Source: a virus
Taxonomy: Duplodnaviria; Heunggongvirae; Uroviricota; Caudoviricetes
DNA: 49,359 nt
IMG/VR virus record: IMGVR_UViG_2875722834_000005
Location: 1 to 49,359 of that record
Strand: one strand, 5' to 3'
Shown: piece after piece, positions 18,656-30,660 of the stretch
How positions within the stretch are numbered: the stretch's first letter is position 1
How the letters are laid out: each line of letters starts with the position of its first letter
The notes under the pieces: model-generated
Told to the model about the DNA's origin: nothing
Seen by the model: the letters and a program-made list of their open reading frames with translations, nothing else
Databases searched by the model: none
Made by a program: the position numbers and the translations under genes

Positions 18656-19999
18656 TTAAACGGGGGTGTTTAACAAATCGTCAGCGGCATCAGAAGATGC
18701 GCTACCTGCTGGGAGTGCACCGGGTGCTGTTTCCATCAAACGATCCAGCGCCGTATCGGTACGCGCCTGGGCACTTTGCGGTGCAGCAGCCAGAATGCGC
18801 TGTGCGCTCTCTACCGTCATACCCGGCGTTTCGGCCAGTGCTCGCGCCTGTGACTCACGCCCTTTAGCCTCATCGCAGTTCAGGATGCCCATGATGCGGC
18901 TATTCTCTGCAGCTACTGCTGCAGTAACCTGCGCACTGACATCTACAGGGGCCGCTACGGAAGCAATGGTCGTATCAACGGTAGTGACCTGTTCAGCTGA
19001 GGCAGTTGTCTGAGTTGCTGCCTGGTCAACTGGCTTAGTGGTCACAGCTGAAGCAGAAGGTGATGGCATAGTTCCTCCAAGGGTTGTTTTTTTGCGTCTG
19101 TCGAGTGCTTCGCGCATCACGCCGAGCGCATCGGTATTGTTAACAAGTTCATCCGCCAGTCCGTTATCCAAAGACTCCTGGCCGGAGAATACTGCCGCTT
19201 CGGTGTCCAGCACGTCCTGAACAGACATGCCGGTATAAGCGGAAACCTTTTCGGCAAACATCTGACGAGTGGCATCGATACGCGTCTGGAAATCAGCACG
19301 CACATCTTTCGGAAGCTTTTCGTAAGGGTTGCCGTCGACCTTGCGATCGCCGCTGTAAATCAGCGTGACCTCAACGCCGTTAGTTTTGAGCGCAGCGCCA
19401 TAGTTGCTGTGCGCCATCATGACCCCAATGGAGCCGGTTCTGGCCGTTTGTGTGACCAGCCGTCGCGATGCCGAACTGGCTATAAGCTGCCCTGCACTGC
19501 AGTTCATGTCATTGGCCAGCGCCCAGATGGGTTTGATATCGCGCATACGGGCTATAATGTCGGCGCAGTCAAACGCCCCGGACACCATTCCACCCGGCGT
19601 ATCCATATCCAGAAGAATGCCGTCAACGCCGGGGTCACTGATTGCCTGCTGCAGGCGAGCAATGATCCCGTTGTAACCCGTCATGCCGGAATAAGGCTGA
19701 AGCGCACGGGTTTTACTGACCAGCGTGCCGGAAACCGGCAAGACCGCGATACCATTTGCCACCTGATAGCTGCGTGATGGACGGGGATCCATGTCATCAT
19801 CCTCACCAAACAGCGCCAGCGGTTCGGCTATTTGTCCGGCATCAAGCGTGATGCCAGAGACGGTATCTGTCAGCCGGGTGATGCCCAACTGGCCAGCCAG
19901 CGCGCAAAAGAAAACCCGCGCATAGGCGGGTTCAAGCATCAGCGGCTCATTAAAGGCCATACTGGCAATATGCGGAAGATTACGCAGCTCGTGCGCCAT
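18656..19999 (-). CDS. C: Capsid assembly protease C (with nested scaffold Nu3)
   Basis: High identity to lambda C over the full length. Confidence 0.9.
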   Translation of the reverse strand: MAHELRNLPHIASMAFNEPLMLEPAYARVFFCALAGQLGITRLTDTVSGITLDAGQIAEPLALFGEDDDMDPRPSRSYQVANGIAVLPVSGTLVSKTRALQPYSGMTGYNGIIARLQQAISDPGVDGILLDMDTPGGMVSGAFDCADIIARMRDIKPIWALANDMNCSAGQLIASSASRRLVTQTARTGSIGVMMAHSNYGAALKTNGVEVTLIYSGDRKVDGNPYEKLPKDVRADFQTRIDATRQMFAEKVSAYTGMSVQDVLDTEAAVFSGQESLDNGLADELVNNTDALGVMREALDRRKKTTLGGTMPSPSASAVTTKPVDQAATQTTASAEQVTTVDTTIASVAAPVDVSAQVTAAVAAENSRIMGILNCDEAKGRESQARALAETPGMTVESAQRILAAAPQSAQARTDTALDRLMETAPGALPAGSASSDAADDLLNTPV

Positions 20000-24462: not shown

Positions 24463-25191
24463 CTATCGACGGCACTGCTGCCAGATAACACCACCGGGGA
24501 AACATTCCATCATGATGGCCGTGCGGACATAGGAAGCCAGTTCATCCATCGCTTTCTTGTCTGCTGCCATTTGCTTTGTGACATCCAGCGCCGCACATTC
24601 AGCAGCGTTTTTCAGCGCGTTTTCGATCAACGTTTCAATGTTGGTATCAACACCAGGTTTAACTTTGAACTTATCGGCACTGACGGTTACCTTGTTCTGC
24701 GCTGGCTCATCACGCTGGATACCAAGGCTGATGTTGTAGATATTGGTCACCGGCTGAGGTGTTTCGATTGCCGCTGCGTGGATAGCACCATTTGCGATAG
24801 CGGCGTCCTTGATGAATGACACTCCATTGCGAATAAGTTCGAAGGAGACGGTGTCACGAATGCGCTGGTCCAGCTCGTCGATTGCCTTTTGTGCAGCAGA
24901 GGTATCAATCTCAACGCCAAGCGTCATCGAAGCGCAATATTGCTGCTCACCAAAACGCGTATTGACCAGGTGTTCAACGGCAAATTTCTGCCCTTCTGAT
25001 GTCAGAAAGGTAAAGTGATTTTCTTTCTGGTATTCAGTTGCTGTGTGTCTGGTTTCAGCAAAACCAAGCTCGCGCAATTCGGCTGTGCCAGATTTAGAAG
25101 GCAGATCACCAGACAGCAACGCGCCACGGAAAAACAGCGCATAAAGCACTTCATTAGCAGCGCCAGATAGCGTAATGATTTTGTTACTCAT
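24463..25191 (-). CDS. Hypothetical protein (243 aa) immediately upstream of cos
   Basis: ORF with AAGGAAA RBS at the internal ATG; no recognised family. Confidence 0.5.
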   Translation of the reverse strand: MSNKIITLSGAANEVLYALFFRGALLSGDLPSKSGTAELRELGFAETRHTATEYQKENHFTFLTSEGQKFAVEHLVNTRFGEQQYCASMTLGVEIDTSAAQKAIDELDQRIRDTVSFELIRNGVSFIKDAAIANGAIHAAAIETPQPVTNIYNISLGIQRDEPAQNKVTVSADKFKVKPGVDTNIETLIENALKNAAECAALDVTKQMAADKKAMDELASYVRTAIMMECFPGGVIWQQCRR

Positions 25192-25365
25192 GGAATATTT
25201 CCTTTTAGGCGTGAGCCTGTCGCACGGCAATGCCGCCCGAGAGGTAAACGCAACCTAACGGCATCACCCAGGCTCACTACTGAAAGACTCTCTTTGATGT
25301 GCGCGTGCGATGCGCGTAGAAGACTGATTTATCAACCTGTCTTTATATCAGGATTCATTACCTGA

Positions 25366-25596
25366 CTATTTGTGGGTAAAGTTCGTAGTGCGCTGATCGT
25401 GCAAAATGATTTTAGTTGGGAACAGTTCGCAACTCTGTCCCATAAAAATCAGCATATTCCCATCTATCCCATATCCAGCGCATTGACCATCGGGATACTG
25501 AAGGGAGATTCCATCATCTCTTAGAAAGATCACCATCTCTTTTGTTTCAATTTGCATATAGCTACCTGGAGGATTTATGAATGCAAGGATTTTCAT
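25366..25596 (-). CDS. Hypothetical small protein (weak call)
   Basis: ORF only; its 5' end overlaps the start of the divergent plus-strand gene. Confidence 0.2.
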   Translation of the reverse strand: MKILAFINPPGSYMQIETKEMVIFLRDDGISLQYPDGQCAGYGIDGNMLIFMGQSCELFPTKIILHDQRTTNFTHK

Positions 25597-26191
25597 GGAC
25601 TATTACCATGAGATTGATTTTCCATCTTTATTCGCGAGAGCAGTGGAAAGCGATGACGATGTGGGTACTACATTGCGCATTCACCTACTTTGTGAGCGCA
25701 TGGTCGAAGCATGGATATGCGCATGCTGTGACTGCCAAGATCTCTTTGGAAGAGATAAAAACAAACTTTTAATCGAATGTAATACTAAAATATCCATGGC
25801 GGGAAACCTGGGAATCCCCCCGGAACTTATGAAATCACTTAAAACCATCAACTCAATGCGTAATGACCTTGCACACAATCCATCAATACAAAGCATTGCT
25901 GATTCAAGGATCCAGAGCCTGAAGGATACTCTGACTGAATACTTTAAACAGCATCCAACGGAACCCAGCATGGAAGAATCAAAACTGGGTATTTTTAACG
26001 CCGAGAATCAATTAACCGAAGAAGTTTCCTTAGATAGTGACAGTTCAAAAAACAGACTTAAGTTAATCTTGCTGTTCAGCAAGTTAATGCAGGCGTTAAT
26101 GCAATTAGTTGCAGCTAATCATAATGGGCGCTGGGATAACCAATTTAGCCAATTCGTTTACCATGTGACCATGAACGCAACAAAGAGATAA
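25577..26191 (+). CDS. Hypothetical protein with HEPN-like Rx4H motif; accessory gene in AT-rich segment
   Basis: 204-aa ORF with GGAGGA RBS; motif SMRNDLAHN fits the HEPN R-x4-6-H signature; opposite strand to the late operon. Confidence 0.5.
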   Translation: MNARIFMDYYHEIDFPSLFARAVESDDDVGTTLRIHLLCERMVEAWICACCDCQDLFGRDKNKLLIECNTKISMAGNLGIPPELMKSLKTINSMRNDLAHNPSIQSIADSRIQSLKDTLTEYFKQHPTEPSMEESKLGIFNAENQLTEEVSLDSDSSKNRLKLILLFSKLMQALMQLVAANHNGRWDNQFSQFVYHVTMNATKR

Positions 26192-27742: not shown

Positions 27743-28041
27743 TAATGCCTCAGCGTATCAACGAGACGCGCCACATTCCCACGAGCCCATAACACGGCAG
27801 CGCAAATAAGAAGGTTTACGATGACCACCATCCAGTGTGACTCCTGGTAGAGGCCGAACAGATATCGGAATGGAACGCTGGCATAAACCAGCACAACGAA
27901 GTACGCCAGCAATGATATAGCGGGGCGATGTCTTGCCCCTTCACGCTGGTAGAACATCAGGACAAGGACGATGACCGCACAAATACCTGCATTCACCATC
28001 GCTGACGGATCACTTGTTACCATTGCTGGCCCCTCCTCCAC
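27742..28041 (-). CDS. Holin-like small membrane protein
   Basis: About 99 aa with two to three predicted TM helices, directly upstream of endolysin. Confidence 0.55.
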   Translation of the reverse strand: MEEGPAMVTSDPSAMVNAGICAVIVLVLMFYQREGARHRPAISLLAYFVVLVYASVPFRYLFGLYQESHWMVVIVNLLICAAVLWARGNVARLVDTLRH

Positions 28042-28405
28042 GGAATCGCGAAAGAATACTGAACAGGCTTCCCAAATCCTGACTGTTGAAAAATGTGAGC
28101 ACTTTGATTGTCATCGCCGCCACTACAACAGCACCAAGTGCGTCTAATGGTCTGTCACTATACCCGGTAGCCTGTGACAGCTTTGAACCCACCAGTCCAG
28201 CGGCAAGAACGCCAACAATGAATGACGTCATGAAGTAAGCAATCAATCGTACTCGTGTGATATTTGCCGCTGTCGCTACATAAAATACTGCACCAGCGAA
28301 TGCGCCAAATACCACGCCATAATCAATACCGGTTGCAAGACCAAATACGCTGGCTCCCATCAGGCCACCAGCCGCGACCGTAGTGCCAGAAACAGGATCG
28401 GACAT
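28010..28405 (-). CDS. Holin-like membrane protein
   Basis: 131 aa, multiple TM helices, first gene of the lysis cassette. Confidence 0.55.
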   Translation of the reverse strand: MSDPVSGTTVAAGGLMGASVFGLATGIDYGVVFGAFAGAVFYVATAANITRVRLIAYFMTSFIVGVLAAGLVGSKLSQATGYSDRPLDALGAVVVAAMTIKVLTFFNSQDLGSLFSILSRFRGGGASNGNK

Positions 28406-28457
28406 TAAGCCCCCTCTTATTGCTGTGAGTCCTCTCAGGAATGAGGGGAATAAAAAA

Positions 28458-28475
28458 GGCCACCCGAAGGTGGCC
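28458..28475 (-). terminator. Rho-independent terminator GGCCACC-TTCG-GGTGGCC plus U-run after the protease gene
   Basis: Seen directly; same element as at 8952-8967. Confidence 0.6.
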
Positions 28476-28499
28476 TTATGTGATTCGAGGATATATCGT

Positions 28500-29399
28500 T
28501 TAGCGAATATTCCACATCATCGTGCTGCCATTATGATTTTCAATAATTTTCGCAGCAGGACTCGTACCAAATGAATGCATGTAGCAATGATGTATAGTCA
28601 GCACAAGATCCTGCAGAGTTTGGTCGCTCTCCAGCTCCATAATGTTCAAACCAATGCTTTGCGCTTTATCCAGATGAATATGTCTAGCATGCGCATAGGT
28701 TGTATGATGATTGTTTAGCTCATCACAAATTCGCTTAGCCTTATCTTGAGCGTTAGCATGACCTGCAAACATACCAGTACACAGCCATTTTTGTACTATT
28801 TCATTAGCCCAAACAATAGCCTTTTCACATTCACCAATGAGAGTCGGGTTTAGCTTTTGAAGAGTAAATTGCCACCATTGGATCGCTGCAGCATTTTCAG
28901 AAATCTCTTTCTTAGCTCGCTCATACTCTTCTATGATCGCATGAGATGATAAACCACCAAGCTGCGGATCAATTGGCCCCAAATTTGACTGTTTGCCCAA
29001 TACAATCTGTTCGGCACAGCAAGCCAACATGGTCCCACAACTCATTGAGATCATAGGAACAATTGCCCGGATATTGGTCCCAAATTTTGAACGAAGATAA
29101 TGACCAATAGATTCCAATGCTGCAATATCTCCCCCTGGGGTATGAAGCAAGATATCCAGCCCTAATGACGTGTCTAAGCCGTTAATGGCTGACATAAGAC
29201 CATTTTTATCGTCATCTGACATTTGTATTAAATGCTGCAACCCAGGCCCCCCCTTCTGGAGGAAGCCTGAGTAATATGAAATTACGTTTCGGCCTGTATG
29301 CTTCGACAACTCTCGTAAGTACTTGTGGCGAACCTCATCCGCTGGTGTACGTTGAGCAATAGTACCCATCTCGCCCAACACGTCTATCCAATTTGGCAT
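28500..29399 (-). CDS. ClpP/crotonase-fold serine peptidase (S49/SDH-like), moron between Q and lysis genes
   Basis: 299 aa; HTPGGDIAA and MISMSCGTMLA motifs resemble ClpP/SppA-type peptidases; AT-richer than flanking phage DNA. Confidence 0.7.
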   Translation of the reverse strand: MPNWIDVLGEMGTIAQRTPADEVRHKYLRELSKHTGRNVISYYSGFLQKGGPGLQHLIQMSDDDKNGLMSAINGLDTSLGLDILLHTPGGDIAALESIGHYLRSKFGTNIRAIVPMISMSCGTMLACCAEQIVLGKQSNLGPIDPQLGGLSSHAIIEEYERAKKEISENAAAIQWWQFTLQKLNPTLIGECEKAIVWANEIVQKWLCTGMFAGHANAQDKAKRICDELNNHHTTYAHARHIHLDKAQSIGLNIMELESDQTLQDLVLTIHHCYMHSFGTSPAAKIIENHNGSTMMWNIR

Positions 29400-29411
29400 G
29401 TTCTTCTTTTA

Positions 29412-29612
29412 TCAATATGAGTACAGTTGATGAGATTGTTGCTCTACAGCTTCAACTGAACTTACAGTGCTGTAGGAGTATAGAACACCACTACGTATAG
29501 CCTGGTCGTCTTGCTGAGCAAGAACGCGCATAGCATAGTGTTGTACAGATTCACCTTTATGGAGTTCCTCTGATTTAATACCTACTTTTTCGTAAAATTC
29601 TGCAGCGCCCAT
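29412..29612 (-). CDS. Hypothetical small protein (66 aa) upstream of the protease gene
   Basis: ORF with GAGGG RBS; stop 13 nt before protease start. Confidence 0.35.
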   Translation of the reverse strand: MGAAEFYEKVGIKSEELHKGESVQHYAMRVLAQQDDQAIRSGVLYSYSTVSSVEAVEQQSHQLYSY

Positions 29613-29886
29613 GATTTTGTCCCTCGTTATAGCTACATCTAGCTCAAAAACAAAACAACAAACACAAGATGTAGTGATTTACGGTCTTTAAATACACGAA
29701 AAGCCTCAAAACGAGGCTTTAAAAGAGTCTTTTTGATAAAGAACTAAACAGACTATAGCGAGTCAATTACAGATTTGACAAGTAAAAAAGGGATTAAAAG
29801 CTCATAAAAACGGCTTTTTTGGATTATTCATCATCTTTTTTGATGCACGTAACAATCCAAATATAAAAACAAAGTTTTGACAAAAA

Positions 29887-29904
29887 ACCCGCTCGATGGC
29901 GGGT
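29887..29904 (-). terminator. Hairpin ACCCGC-N6-GCGGGT with flanking A/T runs about 65 nt downstream of the Q-position gene (late-region regulatory element)
   Basis: Seen directly; on the minus strand followed by TTTTTTG. Confidence 0.45.
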
Positions 29905-29970
29905 TCTTAATTCTTTGTCGACCTACGAAGCTATGGCGACGATATCAGATTTACATGAAATATATGCGTT

Positions 29971-30660
29971 TCAATCCAGTTTTGCAAGACTTGAGTCTAA
30001 ATTTGTCGCCTTTTGTTGTGAACGTGATCGCGTAACCTGCAATAAAGCCCCGCTATCCAGTCGCAGGAAGATGCTGCGCATCTCAACCCAGCGGTCAGTA
30101 AAGGTCTCTGACCAGTTTTTTGGCGTTACGCCAACCAGCGACGCCAGCGCCTGATATTCGTACGTCTCACGCCCTGCCAGCTCTGCTTTCACGTCCTGAG
30201 CCGCGAGCCAGACAAGCTTCTTCAGGCGCTCCATCGTTTTGCCGGCCACCTTCTTCGCGCCGAGCTGCTCCCGGAACTCTGCCCACGCCCATTGAGTGAT
30301 TTCCACCTGATAGCACCAGCGCACGTTCTCGCTATAGTTCCATAGCAGCCACGCTTTCTGATGGTCTTCAAGCGACAGAACAGCGCGGCGCCACGATGCG
30401 GTCCCGTACTCTACCGGGCCCACCAGCGCGATAGACGAGCCCTTAGCGCGGGACTGGTTGCCGCTCATCGGCTGGCCGTCAGGATTGACCATGCGCTGCT
30501 TATCCTTGTCGAATACCTTTTTCCGGCCCCGACTCCGCGCCGTTGCGGTGAATTGCGCGTTCTCGGCGAAAGCTACCAGCTGCCCTTTCGTCGCCCCGCT
30601 GAGGTCTGCGGTCGCCACAATGAGCTGCTGACGTACGTATTCCAGTTGCTGACTGTTCAT
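29971..30660 (-). CDS. Putative late-gene antiterminator Q (assigned by position; family unconfirmed)
   Basis: 229-aa ORF between ninG and the late/lysis region; no similarity to lambda Q seen by eye. Confidence 0.45.
   Translation of the reverse strand: MNSQQLEYVRQQLIVATADLSGATKGQLVAFAENAQFTATARSRGRKKVFDKDKQRMVNPDGQPMSGNQSRAKGSSIALVGPVEYGTASWRRAVLSLEDHQKAWLLWNYSENVRWCYQVEITQWAWAEFREQLGAKKVAGKTMERLKKLVWLAAQDVKAELAGRETYEYQALASLVGVTPKNWSETFTDRWVEMRSIFLRLDSGALLQVTRSRSQQKATNLDSSLAKLD

Follow-up and report, generated by a model that had tools for sequence, protein, structure and literature searches.

Between the late antiterminator gene Q and the holin genes of the caudoviricete record IMGVR_UViG_2875722834_000005 (49,359 nt, analyzed in full and hereafter called the window), positions 28456-29781 of the minus strand hold what has largely been shown to be an autonomous, horizontally mobile two-gene cassette, or moron, inserted between a probable late promoter and terminator unit (PR'/tR') and the holins. 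All features of this cassette lie on the minus strand (Table 1): a leader with its own predicted promoter and terminator, a small open reading frame (ORF) of 66 codons (ORF66), a gene for a 299-amino-acid (aa) serine protease with a predicted ClpP-like fold, and a closing terminator. We tentatively interpret the cassette as a prophage-encoded system of phage exclusion, a plausible reading which we set out below together with its competitors; the anatomical description is much firmer than this functional reading.

The slot between Q and the lysis genes is classically a cargo site, for example for stx, and an initial annotation of this DNA had placed a peptidase moron there. The interval proposed there, 28458-29970, agrees nearly exactly with the variable slot as delimited by alignments with related phages. 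On the Q side, ENT1/BHUENT phages share Q and the sequence just beyond it, with the alignment ending at 29882; on the holin side, the alignment of mEp390 and of Klebsiella phages with the same holins stops at about 28463-28476. Beyond this second boundary, two holin genes (from 28405) precede those for a GH19 endolysin and Rz-like spanins. Related phages carry different cargo in the same slot, namely an opposite-strand 272-aa gene in mEp390 and a small ORF with a tRNA-Arg in CobraSix, so that the slot is indeed a cargo hotspot, although the cassette turned out to be specific neither to this hotspot nor to phages. The AT-richer composition noted earlier was also recovered, with a guanine-plus-cytosine (GC) fraction of 0.34-0.45 over 28450-29950, as compared to 0.49-0.52 in the lysis flank and 0.52-0.61 in the Q flank.

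The larger of the two genes had been described as encoding a ClpP-fold peptidase of 299 aa, to be sought among the S49, SDH, and ClpP families. The ORF is present as described, with the protease motifs LLHTPGGD at residues 84-91 and ISMSCGT at residues 117-123, and only one of the three families was matched in the Pfam scan: residues 22-253 align with PF01972 (SDH_protease; E 2.2e-21, 76.6 bits for a gathering cutoff of 31.3), and the same scan returned no match to PF01343 (S49) or PF00574 (ClpP). By its sequence matches, the protease thus belongs to the SDH family and is neither an S49 peptidase nor ClpP proper; weak matches to NfeD and head-maturation protease profiles were also obtained. 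Against the NCBIfam equivalog NF047768 (Clp_like_SDH) it scores 91.3 bits, below the cutoff of 250 bits, and we therefore place it in a distinct SDH subfamily (phrog_11747, E 9e-127) rather than in the equivalog. Members of this subfamily are ~300 aa in length and have an extra, highly conserved, His-rich C-terminal helical region. RefSeq gives E. coli copies identical to the window protease the name "SDH family Clp fold serine proteinase". Copies that look damaged also exist: in the E. coli EC09 lineage the gene is apparently split into ORFs of 51 aa and 244 aa, while a related Enterobacter copy is intact (292 aa), and on an Enterobacter plasmid (NZ_CP083847.1) the gene aligns in four pieces and looks disrupted.

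Structure prediction and residue conservation point to an unusual active site. An AlphaFold2 (AF2) model built from 24 homologues reached a predicted local distance difference test (pLDDT) score of 89.5, with loop 234-236 as its only low-confidence segment, and the nearest solved structures are ClpP and SppA, both of them remote (template modelling scores, TM, 0.40/0.63). In a profile search against PDB sequences (ClpP match, E 7e-5), Ser120 aligned with the ClpP nucleophile; the nucleophile motif is intact, with this serine in a G-x-S-x-G-T context. An alignment of 24 protease sequences from several phyla contains 71 invariant columns, including S120, D144, K136 (Lys136 of the window protease), and the histidines H86, H231, H237, H240, H270, and H271. 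The catalytic His of ClpP, found in an IHQP motif twenty-five residues past the Ser, is replaced at this motif position by the invariant Asp144 within GPIDPQ. An Asp at the position of the ClpP His would suit a permuted Ser/Asp/His arrangement, as given in the Pfam description of PF01972, and the active site is likely formed by Ser120, Asp144, and a C-terminal His. Candidates for the latter are found in the C-terminal half of the protein, which is helical and holds the unusual invariant set H231, H237, H240, H270, and H271; this cluster may bind a metal or supply the catalytic His. Beside it are three acidic residues that are likewise invariant (E257, D264, and E287).

The initial annotation had listed the 66-aa upstream ORF only as a possible gene. 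The ORF is present, 12 nt ahead of the protease gene on the same strand and in the same frame, and comparison across ~170 related loci, drawn from viral contigs, isolate genomes, and genome bins, indicates that it is more than possible, since in nearly all of them a small ORF (~45-100 aa) abuts the protease gene. Because chance ORFs could mimic this adjacency, we built an iterative hidden Markov model (HMM) from ORF66. This model recruited the adjoining ORF upstream of the protease gene in 82 loci and immediately downstream in 8, and matched none of the ~17,350 other small ORFs of the same DNA. Loci with a downstream partner have no upstream one; the swapped order with adjacency kept was seen in loci L078, L110, L116, L128, L134, L136, L140, and L162 of our collection, mostly from Clostridia. 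That adjacency is retained even when gene order is swapped provides good evidence for a functional pair, and on these comparative grounds ORF66 is a genuine conserved partner within a two-gene unit. Further sequence families of the partner exist, which the ORF66 HMM cannot link.

The partner evolves about twice as fast as the protease, with identities of 41% for the partner versus 74% for the protease in one comparison, and 25% versus 50% in another. Its conserved core reads F..hG(I/L) ... P.Y ... (D/E)F(A/G)RR ... (V/I)xYSxx(S/T), and Y45 of ORF66 is nearly invariant. A single-sequence AF2 model of ORF66 displays helices at residues 3-10 and 23-40, followed by a disordered tail (pLDDT <55) that contains the GVLYSYST motif. 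Searches of Pfam, NCBIfam, PADLOC, and PDB gave no relative of ORF66, and only four close relatives were retrieved in a large-database search. The DNA of the cassette in E. coli 2018-10-1CC is 100% identical to that of the window; ORF66 is not annotated in the RefSeq record of this strain, and is annotated in others. For genome annotation, this means that the small ORF upstream of genes named "SDH family Clp fold serine proteinase" is real, though often uncalled.

Both genes are preceded by a leader of ~130 nt that is conserved well beyond the window. We aligned 22 diverged leaders of enteric and Aeromonas cassettes located in different genomic slots, and in >90% of these the TTG and TAnAnT positions of the predicted promoter are retained. 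About 50 nt past the predicted start lies an intrinsic terminator or attenuator, the helix of which is 97% paired in the alignment, with compensatory changes in four of its six pairs. A second hairpin, abutting the ribosome-binding site of ORF66, has an invariant A.AU.U core in both arms along with covarying positions (96% paired); the variable pairs include one with CG:16/UA:4 and one with AU:8/GC:5/CG:3/GU:2/UG:1 (and 3 unpaired). Its arms are spaced ~28-32 nt apart, and it is found at the same position in loci L002, L006, L011-L047, L087-L092, and L170-L174; it matches no Rfam family. For both hairpins combined, 96.4% of cells in the 22 sequences are paired, with 41 compensatory cells as compared to 16 in shuffled alignments (0 of 500 shuffles reached 41), while sliding the 3' partners by 1-3 columns as a control left only 31-58% of cells paired. 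We consider the conserved leader a candidate new cis-regulatory RNA, in which the second hairpin, with its invariant A.AT.T core, could be an RNA hairpin recognized by a protein or a DNA inverted repeat. The arms were also considered as two palindromic DNA operators; the compensatory and G-U changes that link one arm to the other speak rather for a hairpin, although the invariant core may be recognized by a protein. A promoter within the hairpin (TATAAC) was rejected, as it would strip the conserved ribosome-binding site from the mRNA. At its other end the cassette is closed by a strong terminator, and all enteric-type cassettes inspected have an equivalent hairpin 3' of the protease gene.

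Conservation extends to the spacer that separates the two elements (-35 and -10) of the cassette promoter, with AAAyCTGTGGrTAA in five loci and a weaker version in the window (29760-29775). In several loci this spacer holds a perfect DnaA-box-like TGTGGATAA, and one locus (L036) has an inverted copy, TTATCCACAGATTT, ~55 nt upstream; the conserved spacer may represent an operator for a regulator. The seven non-enteric cassettes named below have a layout unlike the enteric leader, with a short palindrome (of CTCGTATGGATACGAG type) before the ribosome-binding site of the partner. In Pseudomonas-type cassettes, a terminator separates the partner gene from the protease gene, an arrangement that fits production of the partner in excess of the protease; intrinsic-terminator-like hairpins of this kind were seen between the two genes in seven loci from Pseudomonas and other non-enteric genomes (L003-L005, L052, L057, L066, and L084).

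On the Q side, the cassette is preceded by a probable separate transcription unit. The Rfam model RF01393 (isrJ) matches over its full length directly past the Q stop codon (58.7 bits for a gathering cutoff of 37; E 9e-10), and the -10 element of the PR'-like site, which overlaps this stop codon, ends 4 nt ahead of the isrJ match; the isrK model matches the same site more weakly. In Gifsy-1, the related isrK is located straight after the Q-like gene antQ; its RNA is short and ends at a terminator, which part of the transcription passes to enter an insert of two genes downstream (PMC4825925). By analogy with isrK at the same place after antQ, we read the isrJ element of the window as a PR'/tR' unit, in which 29959-29987 is probably the late promoter PR' and 29883-29955 probably the PR'-initiated terminated transcript (tR'), with a role like that of lambda 6S RNA. 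The cassette promoter and terminator (29781-29700) were considered for this PR'/tR' role and rejected, as the same leader precedes cassettes that are not near Q and the isrJ element lies directly after Q. To reach the holins, Q-modified polymerase must cross the cassette and three terminators. The terminator hairpins that the initial annotation described as bracketing the gene are therefore present, at 28456-28477, 29700-29720, and 29886-29905, but its conclusion that expression would follow Q antitermination holds only in part: because the leader is conserved in slots without Q, expression of the cassette does not appear to be merely Q-dependent or simply slaved to Q, and the cassette would also form an attenuated transcription unit of its own.

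Relatives of the protease are widespread. In a large protein database, at least 7,862 homologues were found at E<=1e-5 among 8,000 candidates scored, and an exhaustive search of cluster representatives yielded 326 clusters at E<=1e-30, all of them ~300-aa single-domain proteins with no fusions. A scan of one genome per species gave at least 573 loci. Identities of ~50% are maintained across the majority of bacterial phyla, among them Proteobacteria, Firmicutes, Bacteroidota, Actinomycetota, Acidobacteria, Planctomycetota, Verrucomicrobia, Nitrospirae, and others, and also in archaea, where three Methanosarcinales genome bins (Methanosarcinaceae) encode a homologue; source genomes range from soil and sediment to rumen and archaea. 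The cassette was detected in 80 of 5,426 complete E. coli genomes, including E. coli Nissle 1917 (EcN) and always on the chromosome, and in 7 of 50,697 isolated phage genomes, with all seven contexts looking temperate; these comprise a Mu-like phage, a position adjoining HicAB, and one flanked by tail genes and an integrase. A full-text literature search found nothing on the PF01972 family in a phage context, and no characterized member of the phrog_11747 subfamily was found in the literature searched. The gene family itself is already annotated; what is new relative to this literature is the universality of the partner, the conserved leader, and the spread across domains.

The location of the cassette varies accordingly, and from these genomic contexts it is tied neither to the Q-to-lysis hotspot nor to phages. 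It follows Q in the window, EC09, Enterobacter, and EcN, where a cassette 80% identical to that of the window precedes a methyltransferase gene and a different lysis cassette. Elsewhere, it is found after the lysis genes (E. coli KL53), behind Mor (in a Mu-like prophage of Aeromonas) or C in Mu-like phages, beside an integrase (Pseudomonas), convergent with tail fibre genes (Proteus), adjoining HicAB (Porphyromonas phages), and between tail genes and an integrase (Gordonia). The KL53, Aeromonas, and Proteus cassettes share the same leader architecture despite being located after lysis genes, after Mor, and convergent with tail genes, respectively. The genes closest to the cassette in 80 genomes are heterogeneous and include no third conserved one; those that recur are integrases (10), restriction-modification or methylase genes, holins, amidases, and insertion sequence elements.

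These contexts bear directly on a reading close to the initial annotation, in which the protein is an accessory late or lysis protease of its own phage, expressed only with Q and involved in the processing of holin, spanin, or virion proteins. In the window, in Buttiauxella, in some Firmicutes (holin_4_1/amidase_3), and in Mu-like phages, holins or lysis genes do follow the cassette directly, and its bracketing terminators would be passable only by Q-modified polymerase. However, close relatives with the same holins or Q family lack the cassette and carry other cargo instead, and the cassette also occurs past the lysis genes or at the ends of prophages, and in some genomes no phage genes adjoin it. 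In addition, neither the protease nor ORF66 has a signal peptide or obvious membrane segment that could be read from its sequence, and head maturation has a dedicated S49 enzyme, the separate prohead protease C, encoded among lambda-like Nu1/A/portal/E head genes, as the initial annotation correctly pointed out. We thus regard a late or lysis function as very improbable.

A second alternative retains lytic expression by Q read-through and assigns the protease to counter-defence or host takeover, with host immune or regulatory proteins as the substrates to be degraded. One difficulty is that the cassette retains a promoter and a terminator of its own even in Proteus, where it converges with late genes, and beside an integrase, and that many copies are found in non-phage chromosomal contexts and in archaeal bins. 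The small number of isolated phages with the cassette, all temperate-looking, also speaks against it, as does the fact that counter-defence genes are usually early. Conversely, such a role would be consistent with a cassette that forms the first unit of the late transcript in the window, between tR' and the holins, that in lambdoid and Mu-like phages is often located behind the late activator, and whose extreme conservation suggests a conserved target. On balance, we find counter-defence distinctly unlikely. The lowest probability of all goes to lysogenic-conversion cargo that would act on bacterial physiology or on an animal host to increase fitness or virulence: the slot classically carries such cargo (e.g., stx) and a variant is found in the prophage of the probiotic EcN, but the lack of a secretion signal and the spread through soil, sediment, rumen, and archaea argue for a universal intracellular role, and we consider this alternative highly improbable.

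As a tentative but plausible reading, we instead propose that the cassette mediates prophage-encoded phage exclusion through an abortive-infection or toxin-antitoxin-like logic. In a lysogen, the cassette's own promoter would sustain weak, attenuated expression, and once Q is produced, transcription of the late operon would run through the cassette as well. The protease would act as an ATP-independent peptidase, since no ATPase gene accompanies it and since it occurs in archaeal bins; archaea are not known to possess ClpX or ClpA. The small, fast-evolving partner would be made in excess of the protease and would gate it via the (V/I)xYSxx(S/T) segment, serving as a pseudo-substrate, an inhibitor, a sensor, or an adaptor. 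If the partner were lost, displaced, or triggered, the protease would then be free to cut either a protein of phage origin or a cellular one that is widely conserved.

Several observations weigh against this phage-exclusion reading. The cassette was found on only 4 of 72,556 plasmids, unlike many toxin-antitoxin and defence systems, it is linked to defence islands to no more than a modest degree, with restriction-modification genes beside it in just ~8% of loci, and neither ORF66 nor the protease matches PADLOC-DB v2. In addition, direct contact of ORF66 with the protease is presumed from the adjacency of their genes, and the position of the leader terminator directly past the promoter could leave the cassette mostly silent without upstream read-through. 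The scarcity on plasmids, where addiction modules thrive, also weighs on the nearest alternative, namely a selfish toxin-antitoxin or addiction cassette in which a protease toxin is checked by a labile partner and which persists by post-segregational killing or hitch-hiking, with no anti-phage benefit. A small fast-evolving gene next to a conserved enzyme, in a tight operon with swappable order, is what such a module would look like, as is the terminator between the two genes in Pseudomonas types; the frameshifted-looking EC09 (51 + 244 aa) and Enterobacter plasmid (4 pieces) copies are as expected of a costly gene, and HicAB adjoins the cassette in Porphyromonas phages. The partner, however, has no Pfam match, and neither a DNA-binding antitoxin fold nor a known antitoxin family was recognized for it in Pfam, PDB, or the AF2 model. 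We consider a purely selfish module unlikely, with the caveat that toxin-antitoxin and abortive-infection roles are not mutually exclusive.

A bolder and more doubtful extension of the phage-exclusion reading would view the cassette as a cross-domain mobile immune or toxin module of a mechanistically undescribed type. Such a module would combine an ATP-independent ClpP-fold protease with a permuted active site, a hypervariable pseudo-substrate partner, and a dedicated leader in which a constitutive promoter is followed by a terminator/attenuator and a sequence-specific hairpin. Because such a module would function in methanogenic archaea as well as in most bacterial phyla, one would expect it to target either a cellular protein that is universally conserved or some feature that viruses commonly share. 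Should the cassette prove to be an exclusion or toxin module, few known two-gene systems would match it in conservation and in breadth of transfer; its relatives retain ~50% identity between E. coli and Methanosarcinaceae, no mechanism having been reported for them. With 66 aa and 299 aa, it is also a compact system for the study of ATPase-free switching of a ClpP-fold protease, and the variant in the EcN prophage makes it accessible in a tractable and medically used strain.

Table 1 Cassette features and flanking genes or elements in the window
Feature	Position	Strand	Basis or remark
Prohead protease C	18656-19999	-	PF01343 Peptidase_S49, E 1.7e-37
First holin	28010-28405	-	PF16931 Phage_holin_8, E 2.2e-39; downstream slot boundary
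Strong terminator closing the cassette, AAGGCCACC-TTCG-GGTGGCCTT + T6	28456-28477	-	Terminator scan; 9 pairs, 6 GC
SDH-type ClpP-fold serine protease, 299 aa	28500-29399	-	PF01972, AF2 model, Ser120 alignment
ORF66, small partner protein, 66 aa	29412-29612	-	phrog_25714, E 6.7e-30
Second leader hairpin, CUACAUCU...AGAUGUAG	29633-29674	-	RNAalifold consensus; abuts upstream side of ORF66 ribosome-binding site
Leader intrinsic terminator/attenuator, AAAGCCTC-GTTTT-GAGGCTTT + T run	29694-29720	-	Terminator scan; hairpin 29700-29720
Cassette sigma70-type promoter (predicted), TTGTCA-18-TATAGT	29752-29781	-	10/12 consensus matches
isrJ-family short RNA	29883-29955	-	Rfam RF01393; terminal hairpin 29886-29905 + U run
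PR'-like promoter, TTGCAA-17-TATATT	29959-29987	-	9/12 consensus matches; overlaps Q stop codon
Late antiterminator Q	29971-30660	-	PF06323 Phage_antiter_Q, E 5.2e-87; phrog_304, E 1.7e-98; upstream slot boundary

Two further ORFs were noted in the interval between the lysis and terminase genes. An AT-rich 204-aa ORF on the opposite strand (25577-26191, plus) contains an Rx4H motif (RNDLAH) resembling that of HEPN proteins, matches phrog_5483 and, weakly, the PADLOC CARF_HEPN profile (E 0.004), and shares 100% identity with its counterpart at this place in the EcN prophage; it is probably a second, independent moron. The other, a 255-aa ORF (24463-25230, minus), matches phrog_17079 and marginally a PF09327 tail-tip fibre domain (E 7e-5), for which this position would be odd.

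Comparison with known systems helps to delimit what the cassette shares with each of them. With ClpP (MEROPS S14) and the S49-like SppA, lambda protein C, and NfeD 1510-N, all of them self-compartmentalising serine proteases, the window protease has in common the alpha/beta fold and the context of the nucleophilic Ser, whereas it differs from the ClpP and SppA types in the Asp at the position of the ClpP His, and in having neither a partner ATPase gene nor a membrane anchor. A full-domain match and the ClpP-like fold link it to PF01972 (SDH_protease, formerly SDH_sah, "serine dehydrogenase proteinase"), yet relative to NF047768 it represents a separate ~300-aa subfamily, distinguished by the His-rich C-terminal helical region. 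The two-gene architecture, the faster evolution of the small gene, and the attenuation of the protease gene would be compatible with a type II toxin-antitoxin system, but no DNA-binding fold or known antitoxin family was recognized for the window partner.

At the level of the locus, classical morons such as lambda bor and lom, or stxAB in the Q-S slot, resemble the cassette in having their own promoter and terminator, deviant GC content, and a known cargo slot, and the cassette has the defining features of a moron, being an insert between genes that are adjacent in relatives, with its own predicted promoter and terminator. Unlike these classical morons, however, it comprises two genes with an elaborate conserved leader and is shared across phyla and with non-phage islands. 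The Gifsy-1 antQ-isrK-orf45-anrP-isrJ region likewise has a Q-family gene followed by an isrJ/isrK RNA and a two-gene insert with the small ORF first, whereas its cargo is an anti-repressor rather than a protease, the cassette leader is unrelated to isrK, and there is no second isrJ between the window cassette and the holins.

Closest in gene content may be a two-gene anti-phage system encoded by phage-inducible chromosomal islands (PICIs), mobile elements of Enterobacteria, which Fillol-Salom et al. reportedly described and validated in Cell in 2022 and which is said to be listed in DefenseFinder as FS_HP_SDH_sah. In this name, "hypothetical protein" is joined to the identifier that PF01972 formerly had in Pfam, and the window cassette may correspond to the same system. 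Both consist of two genes, one of them from PF01972, and the window copy differs in being carried by a lambdoid prophage rather than by a PICI.

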